64,000 bases of DNA, taken from NCBI GenBank assembly GCA_030433355.1, contig JAUIMG010000004.1, forward strand, positions 76,260-140,259, read 5' to 3'. Position numbers and translations under genes: made by a program. The stretch comes from Bacteroidia bacterium. GTDB taxonomy: Bacteria > Bacteroidota > Bacteroidia > Flavobacteriales_E > Vicingaceae. Every line of letters starts with the position of its first letter. The first letter of the stretch is position 1. The notes below the pieces were generated by a model. The model was not told the DNA's origin. It saw only the letters and a program-made list of their open reading frames with translations, and did no database searches. Positions 35,121 to 48,508 of this stretch are shown here, in pieces.

Positions 35121-35434
35121 ATTGCTTATAGCCTCACAGCATTTGAAATAGAAGCAGCATGAGGTAATTCTTTTCCATGTGGTAGATAAAAAGCAAGATT
35201 AGATTTTGAATTTGAAAACCGCCCTTACCGCTTTATAGACTTAGAAAGTGGGGAAGAGGTGAAGCTAAAGCCTGTAGAAGTGAAGGAACACTAGCAAGAG
35301 CAGATGGAAAAACAGATGGCCGCCCTAAAGCTGCGCTGCGGACAGTATGGCATTGGCTTGGTAGAGGCCGATATGAATCAAGGTTTTCACTAAATCTAAA
35401 TGCCTTTTTTGAATAAAAAGAAGATTTGTATTAA
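35121..35434 (+). pseudogene. Decayed duplicate of the 3' end of the DUF58 gene (31662-31977)
   Basis: My hand alignment found about 36 differences over about 280 aligned nt. There is a 1-nt deletion near 35195. In-frame stops at 35292-35294 (TAG replacing TAC) and 35391-35393 (TAA replacing CAA). Confidence 0.85.
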
Positions 35435-35886
35435 ACTACTCTCTCTGCTTCTCTTTTAATTGCTGCATTTCGCTCTCCTAAAAAGCGTTTCATGTAGTTT
35501 TTTAGAATGACTGCATTGAAGAGTTTTCCTAAAATTCCAAAAGGAGATTCAAAATGGAAATGATCTACCATGCTTGTAACCCCATTTACTTCGGTGAATA
35601 GATGTTCGTGTTTTATAGATTTGAAAATTCCTTTCACCATTTCATCAGTAAATGAATGCGGAGCATTCATGGCCGTAATTTTAGTGGTGAGTTGCTGTTT
35701 AATACCAAAATGAACTGCCTCCCAGGTAACGGTTTCTCCTAATCCAATTAAACCACTTGTTCTGCCCGCAATGGCTTTTTCTTTCGTTTTAGATGCTGCT
35801 TCTTGATGAAAATCAATACTGCGAGACAAATCGAATATGACTGGAATAGGTGCTTTGATTTTAGTGGTGATGTGAATTAGGGGCAT
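35431..35886 (-). CDS. SRPBCC (START/Bet v1-like) family protein
   Basis: 151 aa. The pattern PLIHITTKIKAPIPVIFDLSRSIDFH...ETVTWEAVHFGIKQ is typical of small SRPBCC proteins conserved in flavobacteria-like genomes, as far as I recall. Confidence 0.7.
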   Translation of the reverse strand: MPLIHITTKIKAPIPVIFDLSRSIDFHQEAASKTKEKAIAGRTSGLIGLGETVTWEAVHFGIKQQLTTKITAMNAPHSFTDEMVKGIFKSIKHEHLFTEVNGVTSMVDHFHFESPFGILGKLFNAVILKNYMKRFLGERNAAIKREAERVV

Positions 35887-36327
35887 TTACTTTGCTAATA
35901 AATCATTCGGATCAACAACAGGTAAAATAAAATTAGATAAAGCAGTTCCTTGAAATCGAGTCATTAAGATGCCACGAGAAGTTGAGTAGGTGATAGATCC
36001 AAGTGCATTTCCTAATCCTGAGCTTACTAATTCTTGTCCATCTTCTTTTGCAATCAGTTCGTTTAAGTTGTCAACAGAAAACCAATAGATGAAATGAAAC
36101 TTACCCACTGCTTCTTTTTGGTCTGTGCTTTCAGTTTCTACTGAAATACGAAAGTTGGTTTTTACTAACTTCTCTTGTAAGTTATGTCCCATTTCAAAAT
36201 CAACATCAAACTTGAAGTTGGTCACTTTGTTATTATCATGTTCCTCAGGACAATCTATTGCACCACTTAATATGGAAAAATGAAGCATCTTAATTTTTTC
36301 AGGAATTAGTTTACCAAAATCTTTCAT
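35887..36327 (-). CDS. Hypothetical protein, candidate SecB-like chaperone of a TAC module
   Basis: 146 aa. An aligned-by-eye beta-beta-beta-beta-alpha pattern and the C-terminal stretch LGNALGSITYSTSRGILMTRFQGTALSNFILPVVDPNDLL resemble E. coli SecB [41 protein letters not shown]. The start overlaps the antitoxin stop (TAATG). Confidence 0.4.
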   Translation of the reverse strand: MKDFGKLIPEKIKMLHFSILSGAIDCPEEHDNNKVTNFKFDVDFEMGHNLQEKLVKTNFRISVETESTDQKEAVGKFHFIYWFSVDNLNELIAKEDGQELVSSGLGNALGSITYSTSRGILMTRFQGTALSNFILPVVDPNDLLAK

Positions 36328-36809
36328 TAGGCAATTTGTCTTTTTGAATTAGCACTTTTCGAATCATAGGAATGTTCCATTTCTCTAACTTGAGTAATTT
36401 CTTGAACTCTCGAATCACTTCTTACAGAAATGGTAGAAGAGAAGTTATTGCTTGCAACTACTTTCATTATTGCATCAGGCGTTTTGAATGGTTTATTCTC
36501 AGTTAATCCTGAGACATAAGCGTATTGATGTAACTCTCTTTTCAAAAGCTCTGATTTACTTTCCAATTCAAAATGAGGTATAAGATCTAGCCTAAGAAGA
36601 ATAGAAACAATTTTTGAATAACTAAAATTTATATCTCCTGAGTTTAAAATTTGAGACATTCTTCCTGCGCTAATGTCTAAATACTTTGCCATGTCTTTTT
36701 GCTTGAAGCTTCTAGCTTCCATATATCGAACAATGGCATCGTATATTTTACCGTTTAATTCTTCTACCCAGTATCCTGGTTCAGAAATTACTTGTTCTCT
36801 TGTTATCAT
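36327..36809 (-). CDS. XRE-family HTH antitoxin (HigA-like) with a C-terminal extension of about 75 aa
   Basis: HTH segment FKQKDMAKYLDISAGRMSQILN. 4-nt overlap (ATGA) with the upstream toxin-like gene. Confidence 0.65.
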   Translation of the reverse strand: MITREQVISEPGYWVEELNGKIYDAIVRYMEARSFKQKDMAKYLDISAGRMSQILNSGDINFSYSKIVSILLRLDLIPHFELESKSELLKRELHQYAYVSGLTENKPFKTPDAIMKVVASNNFSSTISVRSDSRVQEITQVREMEHSYDSKSANSKRQIA

Positions 36810-37204
36810 AGCTTATGATTTTCGTTATAATAATCTATTATAATATTCTTTATTCTGTCGATATCTTGCTGTTGGCTTCCTTTTAAACCTCCTCCAACAA
36901 TTACTCTGCCTTTAGGATCTTGAAATAAATAAATTCTTATTTCGTTTTTCTTGGCTTCATACATTTTGCATGGCAGCCTATCGTCTTTTATTGTTCTAAA
37001 CTTGGCTTCAGGTAAGCGAATCGAGTTACAGCTGTGTTCAATAATTTTAAATGCGGATAAGAGAGATTTTGTGAGGTTTCCATCTTTTTCAATTTTAGCA
37101 TTAAACTGTTGCAATAGATTTTTATCGTTTTTGCAGAGCTCAAAAACCTTGATTTTGGTTTTCGGGCTGACTAGTTCCGACAATATTAACGAATAATTTC
37201 CCAA
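36806..37204 (-). CDS. HigB/Gp49-like (RelE/ParE superfamily) toxin
   Basis: 132 aa. The C-terminal core KMYEAKKNEIRIYLFQDPKGRVIVGGGLKGSQQQDIDRIKNII fits the phage Gp49/HigB pattern (..yElR...yRi.yf....ivll.g..K). Toxin-first gene order, as in higBA. Confidence 0.55.
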   Translation of the reverse strand: MGNYSLILSELVSPKTKIKVFELCKNDKNLLQQFNAKIEKDGNLTKSLLSAFKIIEHSCNSIRLPEAKFRTIKDDRLPCKMYEAKKNEIRIYLFQDPKGRVIVGGGLKGSQQQDIDRIKNIIIDYYNENHKL

Positions 37205-37209
37205 AAAGT

Positions 37210-37225
37210 TTAGTTATAACTAAAG
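37210..37225. promoter_or_regulatory. Perfect 16-bp palindrome TTTAGTTATAACTAAA, candidate operator of the TA(C) operon
   Basis: Lies 6 nt upstream of the toxin start codon, in the only sizeable (63-nt) gap of the gene string. Confidence 0.55.
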
Positions 37226-37267
37226 TTTAACAATTTTAAGCATTTTTATTTACTAACTTAATCCGCA

Positions 37268-38398
37268 TTAAACAGCTGATTTTATTGCACTGTTCAATTT
37301 CGCGACAGGCTTTTTAAAAACATTTACCATTCGCTCAGATGTTTCAATCAAAAAATCAATCATTTTAGGCCAATCTTCTTTTTCATAAATAGAAACTCCT
37401 TGCATTTCAAATTTTATCCTAGAGGAAACTTTATCATTCATTCGTTCCCAAACTAGTTTACCATTAAAATCATTTTCAATTGCATCTTTTTTAGCTTCTA
37501 AAAAATCAAAACATTTTTTATTCTCCAATTGAGCCCCTCTGTTAATATAAATTTCCGCTCTTGTATACGTTCTAGTACCAACTATATTTAGGTTTATACC
37601 GCTCATGCCAATCCCTATTCCTATCCAATTGTCTTTAGAAGGAGAGATATTAGAAAAGAGATTGTTTTTCTGATTACTTGCTTTTAGAAACTCAGCCCAA
37701 AAGTCTAAACGAACCTGATATCTATGCTTTAAGTTTTCTTGAACAGTTATTTCTTCTTGAGCTTTTGATGCCATGCTTATGGTATAATCTTGAGCATCTA
37801 CCACAGGGAGTATTTGGTCTAAGTTCAAAAAAAGTTTATCTTCTAATTTATAAGGAGTGACTTTAAAACATTGAATTCGAATTTGAAAATTCATTAGCCA
37901 TAGTACCGTAGAGGTTACTTCTTTTCTAAACTTAGCAGCAATAAGAATAATACGCTGTTTTGAACCTTCGTTAATGAGTACTTCACTATAATCTTCTTTA
38001 CCTAGAAACTCTGCCAAGAGGGTTTCTGCATCTTTACCTTTATTTTGAGCGTTCAAATAATCTTGAAATATTCTTTTAATGTCCTCTTTTGATAATGTAC
38101 TGCAATAGGAAGCATACTTTAGTGCTTGCCAAGTAACATCTTTACCTGAATCGTCTAATTTATTTTCAATTATAACTAGGTTTCCTTGTTTGTCTAGTGC
38201 TAATAAATCAAGTCTTTCTCTTGTTTCTTGAAATCCATCAAACTCTTTTTGAATGATTAGAAACTCTTCATCTGCAAGGCATGTTGGATCATTTGCAATC
38301 CATTCTTGCAAATGCTCTCTTTCTTTAAAGCCTAATTCAGAAAAAGTACATCTCTCTAATTTCTCAATAATATTATTATCCTGATTTATTCGATACAT
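37268..38398 (-). CDS. PD-(D/E)xK nuclease-like N-terminal domain fused to a DUF4268-like C-terminal domain
   Basis: RLDLLALDKQGNLVIIENK supplies a D...ExK motif at residues about 63-80. The C-terminal half resembles DUF4268 as I remember it. Confidence 0.5.
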   Translation of the reverse strand: MYRINQDNNIIEKLERCTFSELGFKEREHLQEWIANDPTCLADEEFLIIQKEFDGFQETRERLDLLALDKQGNLVIIENKLDDSGKDVTWQALKYASYCSTLSKEDIKRIFQDYLNAQNKGKDAETLLAEFLGKEDYSEVLINEGSKQRIILIAAKFRKEVTSTVLWLMNFQIRIQCFKVTPYKLEDKLFLNLDQILPVVDAQDYTISMASKAQEEITVQENLKHRYQVRLDFWAEFLKASNQKNNLFSNISPSKDNWIGIGIGMSGINLNIVGTRTYTRAEIYINRGAQLENKKCFDFLEAKKDAIENDFNGKLVWERMNDKVSSRIKFEMQGVSIYEKEDWPKMIDFLIETSERMVNVFKKPVAKLNSAIKSAV

Positions 38399-38423: not shown

Positions 38424-38672
38424 CTATGAATTCCTTAATCTAACTAGGTTCGGTTCCCTAAACTCAAATAAATGAGCATAGTTCTTCCCTGCATGTGTGT
38501 TTGGGTGAGTTCTTAATCGTATTTGCTTTGCATTTGCAAAGCCAACATCCTTTTTATAGTAGAGCCTTCTATTGGTAATTTCATTACTAATTTCTTCTAA
38601 AGTAGCTGTTCTGTTTTCTTTGCTTAAAAGAACTACTGCTATTGCTTCGTGTAATTTTAAAATACGTTCCAT
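38424..38672 (-). CDS. Small winged-helix (HARE-HTH-like) protein
   Basis: 82 aa. LHEAIAVVLLSKENRTATLEEISNEI...LFEFREPNLVRLR resembles the HARE-HTH/Mrr_N type wHTH. Weak call made by eye. Confidence 0.35.
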   Translation of the reverse strand: MERILKLHEAIAVVLLSKENRTATLEEISNEITNRRLYYKKDVGFANAKQIRLRTHPNTHAGKNYAHLFEFREPNLVRLRNS

Positions 38673-38688
38673 TTTCTATTTCTAAAAA

Positions 38689-39189
38689 CTAACCCAAAAT
38701 CAACTGCAATACCATAGCTGCTGCGGCTACCAATATACTTAACCATGCGATGTATTCATTTCTCTTTGCTCTAGCTTTTGTTTTTGGGTAGTCATCAATT
38801 ATATTTTTCTTTAACTCAATATCGAGTTCTAAGGCTTTTCTCTCAATTTTATCTTTTTCTGCTTTTTCTGTATGGGCTTCTCTTGCTCTTTCCATCTGAC
38901 CGTCCCAATAAAACTTCATGCCTCCCTGTTGCATGAAATCAAGAAGAAGACCTGTGCCTTCAACCATCCAATTATTATCTTCTGAGTGAGTAACTCTAAT
39001 AACTTCTTTGGGTTGATTCTCTTCAATTATTCTTAAAAGATGATTTACTTGATCGAAATTTTTCTTCACTAAGAATGCATCCAAACTAATCTTATCTGTA
39101 AACGCAATATGGTTATGCTGCTTTAAAAGGAACTTAAATAATAAATCTGCTTCTTGCGACTGGCCTTTTGTTAATTGAAAAGAGTTCAT
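38689..39189 (-). CDS. Hypothetical tail-anchored membrane protein
   Basis: 166 aa with a soluble N-terminal domain, a charged helical stretch (EKAEKDKIERKALELDIELKK), and a single C-terminal TM helix YIAWLSILVAAAAMVLQLILG. Confidence 0.45.
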   Translation of the reverse strand: MNSFQLTKGQSQEADLLFKFLLKQHNHIAFTDKISLDAFLVKKNFDQVNHLLRIIEENQPKEVIRVTHSEDNNWMVEGTGLLLDFMQQGGMKFYWDGQMERAREAHTEKAEKDKIERKALELDIELKKNIIDDYPKTKARAKRNEYIAWLSILVAAAAMVLQLILG

Positions 39190-39193
39190 TTTT

Positions 39194-40003
39194 CTATGCT
39201 TTTAATGGCTCATTATTTTCATCTAATTGAGAAGTTTTCTTTGAATATTTATCTATTTGAATCAGATAATTAAACAAGAAACCAGGAATATATGGATGTT
39301 TATAACCACATGCTTTGCATATTTTATCGTCATTAACCTTTTCATTCTTTTTTAAGAAATCAGAGAATGCGGGATAAATTTTAGTGGATTGCATTAGAGC
39401 CAACCTTTTTGAAAAGAAAAATTTTTGGTCAGAAGTTAAAGTTGAATCTTCAATTGTTTCATATAAATTTATCCAATCTCCAAGTATTCCAAATATTTGA
39501 TAAAAGTGAACAGCTTTAGGATACCTCTCGGTATCGTGAGACTCTGCGTTATATCCTCCAGAAACGGTAGAATTTTGAACCGATTGGAAAATCCCTTCCA
39601 CCCCTAAATAATTTATATTATTTTTCTGAAAGTTAAATGAACTAATATCAATAGATAGTTGATTATATAAAGATTGTATGTTATTACGATCAATATCTTC
39701 CCTTCTTTCATCTCTCTCTCTATCTATTTGTCTCTGAATCTCTTTGTTTGCATTAACTTGTGCTAGAAAGGCAAAATAAACTAGAATAGAGCCAATTAAA
39801 CTTGTTATCGGCGCTGTTATTCCACCTATTGTATCTCCAATTTCATTTGGAGAACCAAAAGATAAGAAACCCACATCTTGTGTGAATAAATAAGGTGCAA
39901 TTATAACGAATAGGATTCCTAGAATTAATAAAAATAATGCACGTTTTGTGAAACTTATTTTAATCTCTTTTTTATCTTCCTTTTTATCTTCCTTTGGTTC
40001 CAT
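39194..40003 (-). CDS. Two-TM membrane protein, putative AbiC-like abortive-infection protein
   Basis: 269 aa. TM1 is ALFLLILGILFVIIAPYLF. The GDTIGGITAPITSLIGSILVYFAFLAQ segment resembles the Pfam putAbiC signature as I recall it. The C-terminal domain contains KICKACGYKHPY. Confidence 0.45.
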   Translation of the reverse strand: MEPKEDKKEDKKEIKISFTKRALFLLILGILFVIIAPYLFTQDVGFLSFGSPNEIGDTIGGITAPITSLIGSILVYFAFLAQVNANKEIQRQIDRERDERREDIDRNNIQSLYNQLSIDISSFNFQKNNINYLGVEGIFQSVQNSTVSGGYNAESHDTERYPKAVHFYQIFGILGDWINLYETIEDSTLTSDQKFFFSKRLALMQSTKIYPAFSDFLKKNEKVNDDKICKACGYKHPYIPGFLFNYLIQIDKYSKKTSQLDENNEPLKA

Positions 40004-40014
40004 AATACTACTTC

Positions 40015-41397
40015 CTATTTATACTCCCCCTCCCCCTCAGCAGCTACTCCCAACTCAACCTCCTCCATCTTATCATAAGCACCTTTTACCGAGACCTGAC
40101 CATTCATCAACATCGGCAACAACCAATCGCGAAGAGTGGAAAGTTGTTGGTTTTGAATTGAGTTTGATAGAATATTTTCTATTGTGGGTTTGAGAAGGGT
40201 TGAGAATTTTTTCAGAATTTCATTTTTTGGTTTTATAACTACAATTGAAGAAAAATCTCCTTTATTCATATTCGCGAATGTATTTCCTGTTTTAGCTTTT
40301 GCAAATTTGAAGTAGTCTTTGAGGTAGAAATACAAGAAATATTCATTTTCCTTATTCTCACAAACAACAGTGTTTAGTTGTTGGTTGGTTTGTGAATTTT
40401 CTGTTGCAAAAGCAACAAGCCCAGGAGAGGCTATGCAAGTAACACAGATTGCACCGTTCGGAATAAATTTATTTTTTTGTGTACTTGCTCCTAGTTCAGT
40501 AAGGCTTAATTCTGTTGAAGTTATGTGCATATTTCCTCTAACATCACCAATACAGATAAATGGTATATCACCATTAAAATTTTCATCAACTTTTGTAGAA
40601 GGGGTTTTACCTGTTATAATATTGGATTCTATTTCGCTTAATTCCTTCACCTCCCAACCCTCAGGTATCTCTCTCTTCAATTCTTCATTATAAACCATTT
40701 TGCCGCCAGAGGATTTGTAGGGCTTGCCAATCGAAGCCTTGGCGGAGTTTGGCTTGTTTTCGTCAGGAAACCCATCCTTCGCTGAAGCTTCGGATGGGAA
40801 CTCAAACTGCACAAACCAATAATCATAAATCAGTTTGGCCATACCTTCTAACTCCGCATTGATTTTGTTGTTCAGCTCTATTTTTTTGTTAATTGCATAA
40901 AGAAAATCTCCTATTTTCTTTTGTTCATCATAAGGAGGTAGGATTAAATCTAAATAGGAAAAAATTTGCTCATTAAGACTCGCTCGCAAAGTCATGATAG
41001 CATTGTTATTCATGGTTTTTCTAAAAAGATCACTCCTTAAGTAGAAAGCCATGAATTTATGATATGTAATATCCTTCTGAGTTGGTCTAAGTCTTTTTAG
41101 GAATCCACTATAAGAGGCCACTTCATAATTCCTAACGGCAACAGAGCTCATTCCTAATTCGTCGAGTGTTTCACTTGTTCTCGTCAAAAAAATATCACCT
41201 TCCAAAATAGAATACTTGCATTTTTCAACCTCAGAAATATCCATTAAATCAGGTAAATCCTCTGGCAAAAAGTGATCTTTAAATACTGTGCTAAAAGATA
41301 AAAATGGAGAACCATGTCCTGCTTGTTCAGGTTTGGATGAAATCCCTGAACTCATTTCATACAAATCAGAAAACTTATAAGTCACAAGTTTATACAT
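40015..41397 (-). CDS. hsdS: Type I restriction-modification specificity subunit
   Basis: Two target-recognition domains separated by conserved helices (LPPYDEQKKIGDFL, KLIYDYWFVQFEFP, LRDWLLPMLMNGQV). Confidence 0.9.
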   Translation of the reverse strand: MYKLVTYKFSDLYEMSSGISSKPEQAGHGSPFLSFSTVFKDHFLPEDLPDLMDISEVEKCKYSILEGDIFLTRTSETLDELGMSSVAVRNYEVASYSGFLKRLRPTQKDITYHKFMAFYLRSDLFRKTMNNNAIMTLRASLNEQIFSYLDLILPPYDEQKKIGDFLYAINKKIELNNKINAELEGMAKLIYDYWFVQFEFPSEASAKDGFPDENKPNSAKASIGKPYKSSGGKMVYNEELKREIPEGWEVKELSEIESNIITGKTPSTKVDENFNGDIPFICIGDVRGNMHITSTELSLTELGASTQKNKFIPNGAICVTCIASPGLVAFATENSQTNQQLNTVVCENKENEYFLYFYLKDYFKFAKAKTGNTFANMNKGDFSSIVVIKPKNEILKKFSTLLKPTIENILSNSIQNQQLSTLRDWLLPMLMNGQVSVKGAYDKMEEVELGVAAEGEGEYK

Positions 41398-43015
41398 GCT
41401 TCAATCCCTCCAAATTCTTTTCAATCTCTGTCTCTAACTTTTTCCCTTCCGCAAACAACTCACATAAATTGCTTTTAAAGCCGTTTAGCTTTAATTCAAA
41501 TTCTTCTGGTGTAATTTCGATGTATTCAATTTTTACTTCAAAGTATTGCCCTGCACTTAAGCTGAAGTTTTTGGCTTTTATGTCTTCGTAAGAAACCACT
41601 ACCGAAAAGTCATCTTCGGCTCTTTTGGCATTAAACACCTCAATAATGCGGTCTTCTTCCGCCGCAGCAAGCAGGGTCTTTTGGTTTTTACCATCTTTTA
41701 CTTTGCTGCCCAAATTAGAGGCATCTACCAATACCACATCGCCTTTGTTGGCTTTGTCTAAAAATAAAATAGAAACGTTGGTACCTGTGGTGGCAAAAAT
41801 ATTAGAGGGCATGCTTACCACTCCGGCCAACATTTTATCTTTTACCAACTTTTCGCGTATTTTCTTGTCAATACCGCTTTGGGCCGTAATAAAACCCGTA
41901 GGCACCACTATGGCAGCTTTGCCATTGGGTTTTAAAGAAGCCATAATGTGTTGAATAAACAACAAATAAATGGCCATGCTGTCTTTTTTACTTTTAGGCA
42001 CATTGGGCACGCCGGCAAAAAAACGTTCTTGGTTTTGTTTGTTGTCCAAATCATCGCGGTAATCCGAAAAATCTAATTTAAAGGGTGGGTTAGAAACCAC
42101 ATAGTTGAATTTGGCCAAACTGCCGTCTTTTTCTTTATGATAGGGCGAGAGTATGGTATTGCCCTTTACCACATTCGGCAGGGAATGCACCAAATCGTTT
42201 AAAATTAAATTCAAACGCAAAAGAGAAGAAGACTTTTGAGAAATATCTTGAGTGTAAATGGTGCATTGGTCTTCGCCAATTTGGTGCGCCAAATTCATAA
42301 GCAAAGTACCAGAGCCAGCAGAAGGATCGTAACAGGTTACATTTTTCACTTCTTTATCTACTAGGCAACGCGCCATAATTTTAGAAACAGCATGTGGGGT
42401 AAAGTATTCCGCATATTTTCCACCACTATCTGAATTGTAATCTTTAATCAGGTATTCAAAAATGGCAGAATAAAAATCAAACTTTTCTTCGAAAATATGC
42501 TCAAAGCTAAAATCTACCAATTTGTTAATGATGGCTTTGCAAAAGGCATCTTTATCGTCTACAATGTACCTACTCAATTCATCAAAAAGAGTCAGCTTTT
42601 CTCCTGTGTAGGTCATTACGGAGAATAAATCGCTGTTTACTTTGGCAATATCCAATAAGGTGGCATCAAAGATTTGAGAAAAGTTCTTTTCGTTTTGCCG
42701 CGCAAACAAATTGCTTATAAAATGATCTCGTTGAATTACAGCGGTAGATTCACCCAATTGAGCGACTAGCATTTCAAATTCATCATCGCTATAGCCATCA
42801 ATGGTTTCTTGCCATTTATCTCCTGCAGCCTTTAGTTTAGCATCTATTTCCTTGGTATTGTGTATGAATTTATCATTTAATAGTTTGTACAAGAAAACCT
42901 GCGTAATCACTTTAAATTCATTGCCATCATTACCTAAACCATAGGTAGCACAAACACTTTTTAACTCATCAATGAGTGCTCTTGTTTTCTGCTCAAAATC
43001 TTTCGTTCTATCCAT
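41390..43015 (-). CDS. hsdM: Type I restriction-modification DNA methyltransferase subunit
   Basis: SAM motif DPSAGSGTLL and catalytic motif VVSNPPFK. 8-nt overlap with hsdS. Confidence 0.9.
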   Translation of the reverse strand: MDRTKDFEQKTRALIDELKSVCATYGLGNDGNEFKVITQVFLYKLLNDKFIHNTKEIDAKLKAAGDKWQETIDGYSDDEFEMLVAQLGESTAVIQRDHFISNLFARQNEKNFSQIFDATLLDIAKVNSDLFSVMTYTGEKLTLFDELSRYIVDDKDAFCKAIINKLVDFSFEHIFEEKFDFYSAIFEYLIKDYNSDSGGKYAEYFTPHAVSKIMARCLVDKEVKNVTCYDPSAGSGTLLMNLAHQIGEDQCTIYTQDISQKSSSLLRLNLILNDLVHSLPNVVKGNTILSPYHKEKDGSLAKFNYVVSNPPFKLDFSDYRDDLDNKQNQERFFAGVPNVPKSKKDSMAIYLLFIQHIMASLKPNGKAAIVVPTGFITAQSGIDKKIREKLVKDKMLAGVVSMPSNIFATTGTNVSILFLDKANKGDVVLVDASNLGSKVKDGKNQKTLLAAAEEDRIIEVFNAKRAEDDFSVVVSYEDIKAKNFSLSAGQYFEVKIEYIEITPEEFELKLNGFKSNLCELFAEGKKLETEIEKNLEGLKHV

Positions 43016-43033
43016 TGTTATCTTCTGCTTTGT

Positions 43034-46000
43034 TTAGGCAATGTTGCCATAGTATTCATTCAAATATTCTTTTACCAATAATTGGTTGATGCGCTTGTAT
43101 TCGGGCATGCCCAATTGCATTTCACCCTTAAATTGTTGAATCACTAATCGCATCATCATTTTTTCTACGTAATTCTCATTGTCCAATTGGTGGGTGTTTT
43201 TTTCTATCTCTTCATCCACTCCTTCTTTCAACTGCATCAATACTTCCGCTAGTTTTCTGTCTTTATCGGTAATGGGGTCTTTTTCCATCAGGCGTTTATG
43301 CAAGCGAGCATATTTTTCGTCTTTGCTGTACTTTTCTTTTAGCAATTGGTTTTTTCGTTCCAACTCTTTGGCTTGGTTATAAATCACTTCCAGCTCTTCT
43401 ATGTTCTCGCTCATTTCATCCTTGCTTACTTCGCTCAGATTTTTTTTCTTAAACAGCCGTTCTAGTTCTTCTCTTAAGGAAATCAATTCTGGATCTCTTG
43501 GATCAAAGTTTCCTCCCAAGGCTTCTCTTGTTTTTTGTAGCATGTTTTTCAACTGGTCGGCCAATACCATTTCTTCTTCTCTCACTTTCGTGAAAGCGAA
43601 AAGAATGTCTTCTAAAGCGATATTGAGTAAATTTTGATTTTCTATATCGTTTTCTAAAGCTTCTCTAGTATTAATTAAAGCCAAGCGGTTATTGGCCTCT
43701 CTTGAAAGCACGCCTAATTTCTGAAAGTCTAATTTCTCTAAAAGGTCATAGTGTCCAAGCGTTCTAATCAAGTTGTATAAACTTCTCGCATCATTCAAGG
43801 CCTTGGTCACCTTCAGCATTTCTTTACGGTCGTTTATTTGAGATACTTGCTGTTGAAATACTTCCGCATTTTTGGTGTTGTAATCAAACAATACATCCTC
43901 AATGTTTTCTATTTCTTGCTTTATTTCTTCGGGGCTTTTAAATAGATCGGTGTAGTATTCCATTTCATCACCCAATTGATCTTGCAGTTCGGCAAAATAA
44001 TCGCGGTTGGTTTTGTCAAACTCACTTTGTATGTCGGCAAAGTCAACCACATAACCGTAGCGGTGATTTTTATAAGTTCGGTTAACTCGAGTTAAGGCCT
44101 GCAGTAAATTATGAGCTTTAATTACTCTAGTGATGTAGAGTTTTTTCAATCGTTTGGCATCAAATCCAGTGAGCAGCATGTTAAAAACAAAAAGGAAATC
44201 AATTTTCCCCTCTTTAAAATCTTCCACCAATTCTTTGCGGTCGTCTTTAGAGCCTACATCATGCAAAATAACTTGAGCTGTTTTTACTTTTCTAGCTTCG
44301 TTTTGCTGCTTTCCATAGCTTTCATTATTCTCAGCAGCCATCGCCAGTTCAGGTTCAGCTTGGGCATATTTTTCATTAAAAATTTGCTGCATCTCTTTCG
44401 CTTGGTCGGAAGAGTCGCAAATTACCATTCCGCCAACGGTATCATCTCCACTAGAGAGTCTAAACTTTTCTAAATCATTAATAACATACTCTAAAAGTGG
44501 TTCCACAAATTTGGGATGTGCATACACCTTCTTTTTATTGCCCGAGCCTCTAATCAATTTGATTTCATCTAAGGCTTCTTTCAACTTTAGCTTGTAAGAA
44601 GTTTCGATTTCTTCTCTGATCAAACGCAGGGTGTAGCCATCCTTAATGGATTTGTTGTAGTAGTATTTATGAATGTATTCTCCGAATAAATCTCTGGAGT
44701 TGTATTCATTCCCCAAAAGTGGAGTACCTGTTAATCCGATTTTAATGGCATTCGAATCTGACTCTTTTAAGTTCGCTAAAAAACTTCCTTTGGGATTGTA
44801 ACTGCGATGCACCTCATCTAAAAAATAGACGCGTTGAATATCTAAGTTGTAATCCGTGTTTTTTACAACCTCAGGGTCATCTTTAAATTTCTGAATGTTT
44901 ACAACCGTAATTTCTGCTTTCCCACTATCGTTATGAATAACAGCAGTAGACTTAATTTCTCGAGCAAATTCTTCTTTTGAATTTACATTATGTACCAATA
45001 AACCACGGCTTCTAAACTCAATACTTGCTTGTATCAACAAATCCAAACGGTCTACAATGAAATAGAACTTTGGGATGATGTTTTTAGATTGATAGTAATC
45101 GGTGAGGTATTTTACATTGTAATAAGCTAGGGCAGTTTTACCGCTTCCTTGCGTATGCCAAATGATGCCTTTTTTGATGCCTTCTTCCAACTTCTGCTCA
45201 ATGGCTTTGGTTGCAAATAACTGAGGATAGCGCATGATGTGCTTTTCCAAATGATTTACTCCTTGCACATAAGCAATGGCATATTGCAGAATAAAAGCCA
45301 AGCGATCTTTTTGAAAAAGCGAAGTGCAAATTCTATTCGTTGGTGTATTCCAAGCGGTATTTACTGCATACTCTTCCGCATTTCGAATGCTAACTAAATT
45401 ATTATCCTTTAAAACTCTGAGCTCTTCCCCCTCATCTAAAGCCGAAAGAATTTCATCTTCGGTAAACTCAACTTCCTCTCTAAAGTAATTGAAAGCATGT
45501 TGGCCATAAGAAGGAGCTGCATAAAATGCACCTTGCAAAGGCTCGGGGTCGCTATCGTCATATTCCATGTTGTTGGAAAAAACCATCAGCTGTGTAATAT
45601 TCACGAAGTTTCTAAACTTCTTGTTTTGAAAACGACTTAAAATTCGCTTGCGCTCTGCTTGCACACCATCGAGGTTGTTTGGCTTTTTCACTTCAATAAA
45701 AGCCAAAGGCATTCCATTAATTAGAAGAATAATATCAGGTCGAAAATTATCGTCATCCTTTTGATAGGGCAGTTCAGTAACTACATGAAAAGCATTGTTT
45801 TCAAAGTTGTCAAAGTCAATCAACCGATTGCCTGAACGATTGGTCAGTTTTTGATAGAAAACTTTTCCTAAATCTTCATTTTCCAGACATAGGGAAATTT
45901 CATCATACAATCGACGAACTTCTTGCTTATTTAAATCTGGGTTAAGCTTTTGAATTTGAGCATTGAAAATATCAACGAATATATTGGTGTTGCTGTCCCA

Positions 46001-46093
46001 TTGGGCATCTTTCAGTGAAAGGTATTCAAAACCTAACCGCATTAGATGCAGTATAGTTGGGATTTTTACGCGAGAGTCTTCGTTGAATTTCAT
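43034..46093 (-). CDS. hsdR: Type I restriction enzyme endonuclease/helicase subunit
   Basis: 1019 aa with helicase motif I HTQGSGKT and motif II FLDEVHRS, plus an N-terminal nuclease region. Confidence 0.9.
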   Translation of the reverse strand: MKFNEDSRVKIPTILHLMRLGFEYLSLKDAQWDSNTNIFVDIFNAQIQKLNPDLNKQEVRRLYDEISLCLENEDLGKVFYQKLTNRSGNRLIDFDNFENNAFHVVTELPYQKDDDNFRPDIILLINGMPLAFIEVKKPNNLDGVQAERKRILSRFQNKKFRNFVNITQLMVFSNNMEYDDSDPEPLQGAFYAAPSYGQHAFNYFREEVEFTEDEILSALDEGEELRVLKDNNLVSIRNAEEYAVNTAWNTPTNRICTSLFQKDRLAFILQYAIAYVQGVNHLEKHIMRYPQLFATKAIEQKLEEGIKKGIIWHTQGSGKTALAYYNVKYLTDYYQSKNIIPKFYFIVDRLDLLIQASIEFRSRGLLVHNVNSKEEFAREIKSTAVIHNDSGKAEITVVNIQKFKDDPEVVKNTDYNLDIQRVYFLDEVHRSYNPKGSFLANLKESDSNAIKIGLTGTPLLGNEYNSRDLFGEYIHKYYYNKSIKDGYTLRLIREEIETSYKLKLKEALDEIKLIRGSGNKKKVYAHPKFVEPLLEYVINDLEKFRLSSGDDTVGGMVICDSSDQAKEMQQIFNEKYAQAEPELAMAAENNESYGKQQNEARKVKTAQVILHDVGSKDDRKELVEDFKEGKIDFLFVFNMLLTGFDAKRLKKLYITRVIKAHNLLQALTRVNRTYKNHRYGYVVDFADIQSEFDKTNRDYFAELQDQLGDEMEYYTDLFKSPEEIKQEIENIEDVLFDYNTKNAEVFQQQVSQINDRKEMLKVTKALNDARSLYNLIRTLGHYDLLEKLDFQKLGVLSREANNRLALINTREALENDIENQNLLNIALEDILFAFTKVREEEMVLADQLKNMLQKTREALGGNFDPRDPELISLREELERLFKKKNLSEVSKDEMSENIEELEVIYNQAKELERKNQLLKEKYSKDEKYARLHKRLMEKDPITDKDRKLAEVLMQLKEGVDEEIEKNTHQLDNENYVEKMMMRLVIQQFKGEMQLGMPEYKRINQLLVKEYLNEYYGNIA

Positions 46094-46159
46094 AAAATTC
46101 TAGATTACTGCTAAAATAAGCACAGATAGGCAGAAAGGAAATACTTAGTTTTAGGTATT

Positions 46160-47209
46160 TTACGCAAGCGCTTCTTCTCCGTAGTTGATCAGTTTATCTA
46201 CAATGCTGTCTAATTGTTGGTCTACCTCGCTTTTGGAAACATAACTCAAGCCATCTTCTTTCAGTTTCAAGAGGTTCTCTTTAGAAGCATTGTCCATTTC
46301 GGCATCTGCGGTGAGCACTTCTGGTTCTAAGCGGTAGTAATCTGCTTTGTTGGCCGCACTAAGGGTATCAAAGATTTGCCGTAAATGGTAATGCACCGTT
46401 TGAGAACTGGCAGACATCATAATTTCTATGATGGGTTTGATCCAACCCACGGCGCCCCAATCTTTGGCTTTTTGGTAGTTGTATTGTTTGCTTTTGCTGC
46501 CAGTGCCAATAGAAACAATAAGCATGTCTTTGGCGGTTGGAAACTCACAAATGCCAGGGAATTTCATGGTCCGCACGGCAGAATAAGCCACCAAAGTGGG
46601 GTTGTTGACAAACACCCCACCATCAATTAGTGGGAATTCAGAACCCAATTCACTTTTTACCAAAGCGGTTTCAAAATAGGTGGGGGCGGCAGAAGTGGCT
46701 CTGGCTACTTCTTTTACCTTAAAGTTATAAATGGCATTATGGGCTTTGTGTTGTTTAAAAAAATGGGGTTTCCCATTTTTAATGTCGTAAGAACTAATGA
46801 TGCAGGGTTTGATTAGATCGGCCAACATCGTATCGCCAAAGGTTTCGGCCAAGGCTTTTTCTATGGCTGCGGCATCGTATTTTTCGTCCAATACGCAATT
46901 GCCGCTTCTTATTCTTTGTCGCAGAGTGGTGTCAAAAATGGCATCTCCTTTTTCCAAATAAAGCTTTACGGCTTCTTCAGCGGTAAGTAGAGGTCGGCCA
47001 TCGGCATTGGGCATCAAATAAGAAAGGCTTAAGATACCACCGGTGCTGGTGCCGGCCATAAAATCAAAATAATCGGCTAGGCGCTTATTGGGATTTTGGG
47101 TTTTTTCTTGGATCTTCTTTTCGATTTGCATCAGCGTAATTCCGGGCAGTATGCCTCTAATGCCACCACCATCAATGGAGAGGATTCTTACTTTTTTCTT
47201 GGGTTTCAT
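46160..47209 (-). CDS. Patatin-like phospholipase
   Basis: Oxyanion loop DGGGIRG, nucleophile motif GTSTGG (GxSxG), and catalytic Asp motif DGGVFVNNP. Confidence 0.85.
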   Translation of the reverse strand: MKPKKKVRILSIDGGGIRGILPGITLMQIEKKIQEKTQNPNKRLADYFDFMAGTSTGGILSLSYLMPNADGRPLLTAEEAVKLYLEKGDAIFDTTLRQRIRSGNCVLDEKYDAAAIEKALAETFGDTMLADLIKPCIISSYDIKNGKPHFFKQHKAHNAIYNFKVKEVARATSAAPTYFETALVKSELGSEFPLIDGGVFVNNPTLVAYSAVRTMKFPGICEFPTAKDMLIVSIGTGSKSKQYNYQKAKDWGAVGWIKPIIEIMMSASSQTVHYHLRQIFDTLSAANKADYYRLEPEVLTADAEMDNASKENLLKLKEDGLSYVSKSEVDQQLDSIVDKLINYGEEALA

Positions 47210-47287
47210 TTTTTAGCCTTTAGGGGTAAAAGAATTCCTGCAAGTTAAAACAGAAAAGGGGGGAAGTCAAGGGTAGGGTTCTTAATT

Positions 47288-47415
47288 GTCATTGCGAGTG
47301 GAACAAAGTGAAGCGAAGCAATCTGTTGATTAGATAACTCAATAACCAGATTGCTTCATTCGTACCTCATTCGCAATGACGTAATGGATAGATTGCTTCG
47401 TTCTTCGCAATGACA
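47288..47415. repeat. Compound palindromic REP/MITE-like element (GTCATTGCGAG...TCGCAATGAC arms)
   Basis: Arm 47288-47325 pairs with 47347-47380, and a third partial arm lies at 47390-47415. I recall this repeat family as common in intergenic regions of Bacteroidota. Confidence 0.7.
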
Positions 47416-47431
47416 GAATTCATATATTTTT

Positions 47432-48508
47432 TTACTTGTAGTTCCCTAATTTCTTAATTCGCTTAGCAATGCTTTCCAGTTCGGAGGCATCAAAAATGGG
47501 AGGAAGAAATGTTAAATACTTATTGAGTTCCTTCAGGTTTTTCACAGTTACGTAATCAAATTTCTCATGGGGTTTATTCTTAATCATTACCACTAGGTTT
47601 CTTACGGGAATTGTTCTTTTTCCCCAATGATGTATGAGTTTTAGTATGGAATTTTTCTTAGAATTAAGCATAGTAAAAAGGGCATATCCAGTTCTTTGCA
47701 CTTGTTGTACTGGAGAATAAGCATTTACATTAGCAATAGTAGTTTCACTCCAATTTTTGGTTTCTATTGCAAAAACACCTGCTCTGCAAAGCAATACATG
47801 ATCAATTTGTATGCTAAAGATTCTGTCTTTATCTTTTTTGTTGTAAATAGGAGGGTCGAATTTTACAGAGAAATCATTGAATAAGATGTATTCGTCCGAA
47901 AGCTTTTTTATTTCTTTCTGCACTAGGTTTTCTCCTTTAGCACCTTCAATTAAAGGGCCTAAATCATCTAAAATTGCTTTGGTAAACTGCAGTCTTTTAA
48001 GTTTTGGTTTAAGCCTATTGCGGATTATCTTCTCCCTGTTCTTTTCGAAGTAGTTAAACTTCTTTCTTCCTTTTAAGAACTGCCATTTTAAGTGTGCTAA
48101 GCTTAATGCTTTTAAGCTACTAAAACTCTTCTCCATAAGGTATATGTTAAAGCGGAGGAGGAGTGTGTAGCACCAATGGAAAAACTCTAAAAAATCATTT
48201 TTTATGTATTTCGATTCAAATACTGCCAGTCTTTTTCTTTTGGCTAGTAGTTTGCTTTCTACTTTCTCTTTTAAGCTACTACTTAAGTTTGCCATGCTTG
48301 TTTCAACTTTCTGAAGTTGGCTTTGCAGTTTAATGTATTCTTGGCAGTATTCCCTTTCCATCTCTTGCTGCAAGGTATTCAGGGTATGTGGGTATTTATC
48401 TTGAAATACTTCTATTTCTTGGATGGAGCTAAAATCATAAATCCCCTTCTTTAAAAGCGTTTCTTTTAATCTGCTTAAAGATTCTATTTGTCCGTAGACG
48501 ATGGCCAT
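47432..48508 (-). CDS. NERD domain protein with a long helical N-terminal region
   Basis: The C-terminal GAKGENLVQKEIKKL...IQIDHVLLCRAGVFAIETKNWS matches the NERD (nuclease-related domain) pattern. Confidence 0.7.
   Translation of the reverse strand: MAIVYGQIESLSRLKETLLKKGIYDFSSIQEIEVFQDKYPHTLNTLQQEMEREYCQEYIKLQSQLQKVETSMANLSSSLKEKVESKLLAKRKRLAVFESKYIKNDFLEFFHWCYTLLLRFNIYLMEKSFSSLKALSLAHLKWQFLKGRKKFNYFEKNREKIIRNRLKPKLKRLQFTKAILDDLGPLIEGAKGENLVQKEIKKLSDEYILFNDFSVKFDPPIYNKKDKDRIFSIQIDHVLLCRAGVFAIETKNWSETTIANVNAYSPVQQVQRTGYALFTMLNSKKNSILKLIHHWGKRTIPVRNLVVMIKNKPHEKFDYVTVKNLKELNKYLTFLPPIFDASELESIAKRIKKLGNYK

Follow-up and report, generated by a model that had tools for sequence, protein, structure and literature searches.

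A candidate HigBAC-type toxin-antitoxin-chaperone cassette with a SecB-fold protein in a Bacteroidota defence island

Toxin-antitoxin-chaperone (TAC) systems are established anti-phage systems in which the chaperone senses phage proteins, and they have recently become a model of how bacteria detect such proteins. The chaperone-addiction domains (ChADs) of characterised TACs are dissimilar in sequence; a Val-Ala ClpXP degron closes that of Mycobacterium tuberculosis HigA1, the last two residues of CmdA are Ala-Ala, and that of Escherichia coli HigA is recognised via spaced aromatic residues. Here, we describe a three-gene cassette (g1, g2, and g3) in a 64,000-nucleotide (nt) stretch of a Bacteroidia bacterium (GenBank assembly GCA_030433355.1, contig JAUIMG010000004.1, positions 76,260 to 140,259), hereafter the window. 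We read the three genes as a HigBAC-type TAC cassette of a highly diverged Bacteroidota lineage, carried in a horizontally acquired defence island, and put the probability of this reading at about 0.75. To our knowledge, all characterised TACs are from Actinobacteria or Proteobacteria. The cassette comprises the following features.

36806-37204, minus strand: g1, putative toxin of 132 amino acids (aa) with a TTG start (open reading frame [ORF] listing and direct reading)
36327-36809, minus strand: g2, putative antitoxin of 160 aa (ORF listing and direct reading)
36525-36809, minus strand: g2 residues 1-95, XRE-type helix-turn-helix (HTH) core (HTH_37) with presumed DNA-binding and toxin-neutralising roles
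36327-36524, minus strand: g2 residues 96-160 plus stop, C-terminal extension, candidate ChAD and candidate degron
35887-36327, minus strand: g3, SecB-fold protein of 146 aa, putative dedicated chaperone (SecB-TA) (ORF listing and AlphaFold2 [AF2] model)
37205-37228, strand not assigned: palindrome that borders the g1 start codon, a candidate operator of the HTH antitoxin

A sequence-only reading of the window had called three coupled genes here, and all of its coordinates and overlaps proved correct when the ORFs were listed and the sequence was read directly: ATGA (36806-36809, 4 nt) holds both the g1 stop and the g2 start, and TAATG (36325-36329, a 1-nt gene overlap) holds the g2 stop and the g3 start. 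A scan of species-representative genomes yielded 112 loci with g3 relatives, of which 80 were kept (79 Bacteroidota and 1 Ignavibacteriales); loci are cited here as L and a number. The window-type g1/g2 pair with its own chaperone clade was found in L038, L082, L084/85, and L086/87, and since the identical order and the 4-nt and 1-nt overlaps recur in these loci, the cassette is not a chance run of ORFs. Order and overlaps are also those of L098, and the toxin-antitoxin-chaperone order is found in L093 and L095. All three ORFs are intact and have kept 54 to 90% identity across distinct genomes. The flanks of the g1/g2-type cassettes are unrelated, except that L038 is syntenic with the window, and MmeI-type or Type I restriction-modification (RM) genes are frequent in them.

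The third protein has, by structure prediction, a SecB fold. The AF2 model of g3, built from a 31-sequence alignment (predicted local distance difference test [pLDDT], 91; predicted template modelling score [pTM], 0.82), has four long strands and, after them, a long helix. The top 18 matches of the model in the PDB (Foldseek) were E. coli or Haemophilus influenzae SecB or M. tuberculosis Rv1957 bound to a ChAD peptide (E values, 2e-6 to 1e-4; template modelling [TM] scores, 0.50 to 0.72; about 12% identity). Next came 2o2a (three chains) and 2hng, which are Streptococcus proteins of unknown function, together with a nuclear magnetic resonance model of SecB (E values, 3e-4 to 1e-3); the remaining folds began at E > 0.04, with TM scores of <0.25. 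A total of 328 g3 homologues were found. The C-terminal third of g3 is almost invariant, and the motif ITYSTSRGILMTRFQGT.L..F.LP...PN.L is invariant in the family alignment. In the M. tuberculosis SecB-TA, the ChAD touches, among other parts, an L-P-P-L segment in the extended C-terminus; the F.LP...PN.L segment of g3 may, speculatively, serve the same role, and by analogy g3 is a possible phage-protein sensor.

Relatives of g1 were collected with a word-indexed search, which gave six close ones, and with an exhaustive HMMER search, which gave 219, of which 107 were aligned. Among these, 77 of 107 match the RelE/ParE toxin family TIGR02683 (E ≤ 0.01; best, 5e-8), and 7 of 107 match PF05973 (Gp49), the only Pfam family to recur. 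The AF2 model of g1 (pLDDT, 72; pTM, 0.64) runs beta-alpha-alpha-beta-beta-beta-alpha, a RelE-type topology, and its best PDB matches are Streptococcus pneumoniae HigB (6af3 and 6af4; probability, 0.94 to 0.99; TM scores, 0.45 to 0.65), with RelE2 (3g5o) also matched. The model gave nothing meaningful against viral structures (BFVD), and the toxin-family profile gave designed-protein noise only against PDB sequences. R90 and Y92 are invariant over the 107 relatives, E83, G106, K108, Q111, and D114 are nearly so, and K85 does not vary in the six close homologues. Judged by spacing, the counterparts of E83-x-K85, R90, and K108-x-x-Q111 would be E66-x-R68, R77, and K95-x-x-Q98 in the TAC toxin HigB of M. 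tuberculosis, and R68, R73, and K92 in S. pneumoniae HigB. At the family level, we place g1 among the gp49/HigB-like members of the RelE/ParE superfamily, although it is itself below the curated thresholds, and predict by analogy that it is a ribosome-dependent mRNA endonuclease. The earlier HigB/Gp49 call thus stands for the family, through its TIGR02683 and PF05973 matches and the HigB fold matches, but not for g1 taken alone, which has no Pfam match.

The toxin genes of L083 (181-563) and L082 (3606-4004) are identical save that L083 lacks 1 nt of an A7 run, which frameshifts its toxin; the L083 antitoxin and chaperone are intact. This was not used as a sign of counter-selection against the toxin, as L083 is a metagenome contig and a homopolymer error in the A7 run is possible.

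The second gene combines an HTH core with a long tail. HTH_37 (PF13744; Pfam) covers g2 residues 22-75 (E = 1.7e-5; 25 bits versus a cutoff of 27) and is precomputed for 13 of 13 g2 homologues. In the family alignment, residues 1-85 are almost invariant and are followed by a semi-conserved YAY..G..NK.F...MKVV and then by a hypervariable stretch, so that YAY, F108, and MKVV are the semi-conserved elements of the tail. Two-gene modules have short antitoxins that are homologous to the core, and this homology stops at about residue 95-100. A tail of about 75 aa, as had been proposed, is right when counted from the Pfam HTH match (22-75) but comes to about 60 aa relative to the short homologous antitoxins. 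The tail is richer in S/T/N/Q than the core (32% versus 19%) and has five aromatic residues; on our own reading of the alignment, the semi-conserved aromatics would lie at about 96, 108, 123, and 148. Full-length homologues of the g2 type end in -IA (10/11) or -VA (1/11), with K/R-x before it. We regard the tail as a candidate chaperone-addiction region and the K/R-x-I-A end as a candidate degron, both by analogy with described TACs. A linear motif shared by g2-type and PDC-M64-type tails (see below) was not found, which is uninformative because the ChADs of characterised TACs are also dissimilar.

Long antitoxins go with a third gene. Eleven complete g1-family contexts were read, of 219 or more representatives. 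Nine cassettes have a third gene (the window, L038, L086, L082, L084, L093, L095, L098, and the contig of P0142), with antitoxins of 160, 157, 157, 151, 152, 137, 147, 145, and 131 aa, and in the two modules without one the antitoxins are 103 and 117 aa. All surveyed antitoxins that could be tested have the g2 HTH core. In 7 of the 9 cassettes a profile identifies the third gene as SecB-like, in L098 the likeness is seen only by eye, and the third gene of P0142 falls outside this count; the expected pairing of long-tailed antitoxins with chaperones therefore holds for tail length and third gene (131 to 160 versus 103 and 117 aa), but the third gene is profile-confirmed as SecB-like in 7/9 only. 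Chaperones partnered with g2-type antitoxins form one clade, and chaperones group by the type of their partner antitoxin.

The third genes of L093 (3301-3756), L095 (1214-1681), and L098 (1269-1727) are more divergent members of g1-family cassettes. A profile identifies those of L093 and L095 as SecB-like (E = 1e-13 and 8e-9), and in that of L098 a signature, TRGV…GTPL…VVVPL, is recognisable only by eye; SecB-like chaperones may extend well past profile detection. The L093 cassette lies directly after an HsdS gene. A decayed cassette was seen in L002 (3759-4450; OY970294.1, uncultured Flavobacteriales), where an intact SecB-like gene stands with an ORF that encodes the antitoxin tail only (…EEYAYQKGLL…PLKEIA, of the g2 type); the toxin and the HTH core are gone, and an N-terminal HsdM fragment lies upstream.

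The palindrome at 37205-37228 has arms of 12 + 12 nt (AAAGTTTAGTTA/TAACTAAAGTTT) with 0 nt between them, 92% complementarity, and a perfect 16-bp core (TTTAGTTATAACTAAA), and it is the sole such site in the window. About 40 nt upstream of g1, palindrome included, are conserved in L038, L082, L084, and L086, and farther upstream the sequences are unrelated. The g1 start is TTG (37202-37204) in all five cassettes (the window and these four loci), and in the window an in-frame TAA lies 12 nt upstream of it. As the palindrome extends to the base immediately before the g1 start codon, the transcript leader may be very short or absent. The palindrome fits autoregulation by the HTH antitoxin and is a candidate operator that possibly overlaps the promoter. 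A scan for sigma-70 promoters and terminators, which is unsuited to Bacteroidota promoters, returned sites no more often than in shuffles; the lack of a recognisable sigma-70-type promoter is what one expects in Bacteroidota.

Across the kept loci, the gene directly upstream of the g3 relative encodes an HTH_3 protein of about 130 to 137 aa in 69/80, usually with an 11-nt overlap, and in 63 loci this gene is preceded by one for a protein of about 173 to 183 aa. All three proteins of these common loci match PADLOC PDC-M64 models. The family is thus already in databases, as the PADLOC candidate PDC-M64, which corrects the sequence-only reading. Most Bacteroidota g3 homologues sit in PDC-M64 cassettes of ~175-aa, ~130-aa HTH, and SecB-like proteins, whereas the window chaperone falls in a separate clade. 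For the window, PDC-M64C (PDLC04763) matches g3 over its full length (E = 1e-29), g2 is matched weakly via its HTH (E = 0.004 to 0.02), and none of the PDC-M64 models matches g1. The ~175-aa proteins are nonetheless remotely homologous to the g1 family (hhalign probability, 96.2%; E = 2.3e-9; 114 columns), and therefore the whole Bacteroidota family has the HigB-like/XRE/SecB-like logic. A swap of the toxin slot between the window and PDC-M64, proposed from the absence of blastp similarity, was withdrawn after the hhalign result; the window is a diverged sister lineage. Neither Pfam nor NCBIfam matches the ~175-aa first gene (L003 3025-3576 and 62 other loci), and its products share an LR.Y…IVV..GG.K…Q motif with the g1 family and contain sequence that g1 lacks.

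The PDC candidates owe their definition to guilt-by-embedding, the host systems being BREX, DISARM, and Type I RM (Payne et al. 2024); PDC-M64 is a set of anonymous protein-family cassettes, a candidate only and not described as a TAC, and SecB is nowhere mentioned in connection with it in the main text and supplements of that paper. The searchable literature, with its incomplete coverage, yielded no study of a characterised Bacteroidota TAC or of PDC-M64, a negative that amounts to absence of evidence and no more.

The cassette stands in low-GC DNA (GC content of 0.30 to 0.33, versus 0.365 for the window and 0.39 to 0.41 for adjacent metabolic genes), next to the following genes.

35431-35886: SRPBCC gene of 151 aa, downstream of g3, its start abutting the g3 stop
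37268-38398, minus strand: PDC-S11 gene of 376 aa, with an N-terminal NucS/PD-(D/E)XK-like region and a C-terminal DUF4268 (PADLOC PDC-S11, E = 1e-158)
38424-40003, minus strand: three small ORFs of 82, 166, and 269 aa between HsdS and PDC-S11 (GC content, 0.30 to 0.35)
40015-41397, minus strand: HsdS, Type I RM
41390-43015, minus strand: HsdM, Type I RM
43034-46093, minus strand: HsdR, Type I RM
46160-47209, minus strand: patatin-like phospholipase gene
47432-48508, minus strand: NERD-domain gene

The PDC-S11 gene is directly upstream of the cassette and has 90% identity in L038. From 40015 to 48508, the region looks like an extended defence island, and in several genomes the cassettes stand beside or within RM systems. 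A tRNA at the island border was not found. Pfam gave no match for the 166-aa and 269-aa ORFs and a weak, sub-threshold one only for the 82-aa ORF; the two larger ORFs have hydrophobic segments by eye, and all three may be further RM-embedded defence candidates.

By analogy with the M. tuberculosis TAC, E. coli HigBAC, and CmdTAC, the following mechanism is proposed. The g3 protein, presumably a tetramer, would bind the g2 tail and keep g2 soluble and shielded from proteolysis, the tail (~60 to 75 aa, presumably unstructured) serving as a chaperone-addiction element with a degron-like Ile-Ala terminus. The HTH core of g2 would neutralise g1 and probably repress the operon via the palindrome at the g1 start. 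Upon infection, a phage structural protein would compete for g3, g2 would be lost, and g1 would be freed; it would then cleave ribosome-bound mRNA, and the resulting shutdown of translation would abort the infection.

Several results weigh against a TAC assignment. By itself, g1 matches TIGR02683 weakly (NCBIfam; E = 0.024; residues 89-122; 15 bits versus a cutoff of 62.85), the confidence of its model is moderate (the other four models have pLDDT values of 49 to 53), and its Foldseek E values are weak (0.045 to 0.19 for 6af3/6af4, 0.045 being the best). For g3, Pfam returned no PF02556 match with it or 30 relatives, even at E ≤ 1, NCBIfam returned nothing, and the family profile recovered no SecB from PDB sequences. 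Alignment of g3 with E. coli SecB by hhalign was non-significant (probability, 0.1%) and in a different register from that drawn by eye in the sequence-only reading, and pairwise alignment gave z = 1.1 against shuffles; that residue alignment is therefore statistically unsupported. Because every sequence method failed, the SecB assignment of g3 rests on predicted structure: SecB-likeness, as first called, is borne out by the model and its PDB matches but not by the PF02556 profile. The -IA end is also found on the short, chaperone-less antitoxin of L089 and is lacking in those of L093 and L095, which makes it suggestive and not specific to chaperone addiction. Finally, the survey of tails and chaperones is small, with two chaperone-less cases.

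Such points leave room for a conventional two-gene, HigBA-like toxin-antitoxin (TA) module followed by a SecB-fold protein that is no antitoxin chaperone, with g3 perhaps sensing phage or acting as an adaptor on its own, serving as a second regulator, or attending to other clients, and with a tail that would serve, for example, oligomerisation or protease targeting only. Hypervariable tails with no clear motif common to the g2 and PDC-M64 types would suit it, as would an -IA end on an antitoxin that has no chaperone, and g3 is most conserved at its own C-terminus, which could serve another interaction. The variability loses force in that the ChADs of characterised TACs are no more alike, and the closest structural matches of g3 include Rv1957 with a ChAD peptide bound. 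Gene arrangement points the same way: g2 and g3 overlap by 1 nt in a strict toxin-antitoxin-chaperone order in the g1/g2-type cassettes, and most PDC-M64-type loci keep the order with their 11-nt overlap. No long tail was seen without a third gene, chaperones with antitoxin partners of one type group with one another, and L002 has retained tail and chaperone together. We therefore consider this explanation unlikely, although it is the most probable of those weighed against a TAC.

It is less probable again that the cassette is not, or is no longer, a poison-antidote pair, in which case g1 would be gp49-like but not toxic and g2 would regulate transcription. Non-toxic HigB paralogues do exist (M. 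tuberculosis HigB2 and HigB3), and g1 is far below the curated family thresholds with a model that is only moderately confident; against this, its catalytic-type residues are invariant or nearly so over 107 relatives, the three ORFs remain intact at 54 to 90% identity across distinct genomes, and the setting is a defence island. Very improbable, in our view, is that g3 is the general SecB export chaperone of the organism and a TA neighbour by chance. Its SecB fold and one homologue named "Preprotein translocase subunit SecB" in UniRef are what this explanation has to offer, and it would have to accommodate a family that is patchy, island-borne, low in GC, and devoid of PF02556 signal, a gene that, wherever its upstream side could be read, nearly always follows directly on one for an HTH antitoxin, and a cassette that moves as a unit between unrelated contexts. 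Equally remote is a four-gene unit, raised in the sequence-only reading, in which the SRPBCC protein (35431-35886) would be a RatA-like second toxin or an accessory factor. The g3 stop does abut its start (TAAATG, 35884-35889), its GC content (0.371) is intermediate between those of the cassette and core genes, and L038 has the same neighbour after a 5-nt gap. However, L038 is not an independent context, because its flanks are shared with the window; by tblastn, an SRPBCC homologue was found only there and in L001, the duplicate contig of the window, and other or opposite-strand genes lie downstream of the cassettes in L082, L084/85, L086/87, L093, L095, and L098. The Pfam match of the SRPBCC protein is to Polyketide_cyc2 (E = 6e-5), with Polyketide_cyc at 0.048 only. 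With the linkage not conserved over the fetched loci, the four-gene unit was rejected.

Taking the TAC reading of the window together with PDC-M64, we tentatively propose, at somewhat less than even odds, that the Bacteroidota PDC-M64 family and its sister lineage in the window form a large, unrecognised anti-phage branch of TACs. Its SecB-like clade would have been missed by profiles, its cassettes would habitually lie in or beside Type I RM operons, its chaperones would sense structural proteins of Bacteroidota phages, and the invariant SRGILMTRFQGT.L..F.LP...PN.L would make up a client-binding groove unlike the one in the SecB-TA of proteobacteria and mycobacteria. The cassette itself would extend TACs to Bacteroidota, which are important in marine, freshwater, and gut settings and whose phage defences are poorly studied. 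Since SecB-like chaperones diverge beyond sequence detection, the abundance of TACs is probably underestimated. Related cassettes with different tails and matching chaperone clades also offer a natural series for the study of chaperone-tail specificity. The TAC concept itself is unchanged, and the value lies in annotation, which is conceptually unsurprising.

The likeness to the M. tuberculosis HigB1-HigA1-Rv1957 layout drawn in the sequence-only reading was apt, and all three component assignments survived testing. With that TAC (HigB1, Rv1955; HigA1, Rv1956; Rv1957) the cassette shares the toxin-antitoxin-chaperone order, a gp49-type toxin of the RelE superfamily with comparable spacing of catalytic-type residues, an XRE HTH antitoxin whose C-terminal extension ends in an aliphatic residue and Ala (VA in M. 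tuberculosis, IA here), and a SecB-fold third protein, with 5mtw chains among the top g3 matches (TM scores, 0.50 to 0.61). It differs in that g3 is about 12% identical and invisible to PF02556 (a domain found in 25 of roughly 60 TAC/AC chaperones surveyed in 2012), in a g2 tail without sequence similarity, in its Bacteroidota host, and in its place in a Type I RM defence island instead of a stress-response locus; it is known here from sequence and models.

E. coli HigBAC (NT1F31) and CmdTAC likewise have three parts, an antitoxin whose long unstructured tail carries spaced aromatics, and a defence-like location, and it is from them that titration of the chaperone by a phage structural protein is borrowed as a possible trigger for this cassette. 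PSI-BLAST with SecB-like queries brought up their chaperones but does not detect g3. CmdT is an ADP-ribosyltransferase and not a RelE-type RNase, and the HigA ChAD, in which four aromatic motifs are spaced by about 30 residues, measures 96 aa, compared with about 60 to 75 aa for the g2 tail. Canonical SecB of E. coli and H. influenzae resembles g3 in its four-stranded sheet and long helix (TM scores, 0.61 to 0.72). It has no significant sequence similarity to g3, whose gene is island-borne and TA-linked, not housekeeping, and binding of SecA by g3 is not expected. A TAC class with exactly this order and these toxin and antitoxin types was thus already known; what is added is a strongly diverged clade of SecB-like proteins and, for PDC-M64, a functional label.

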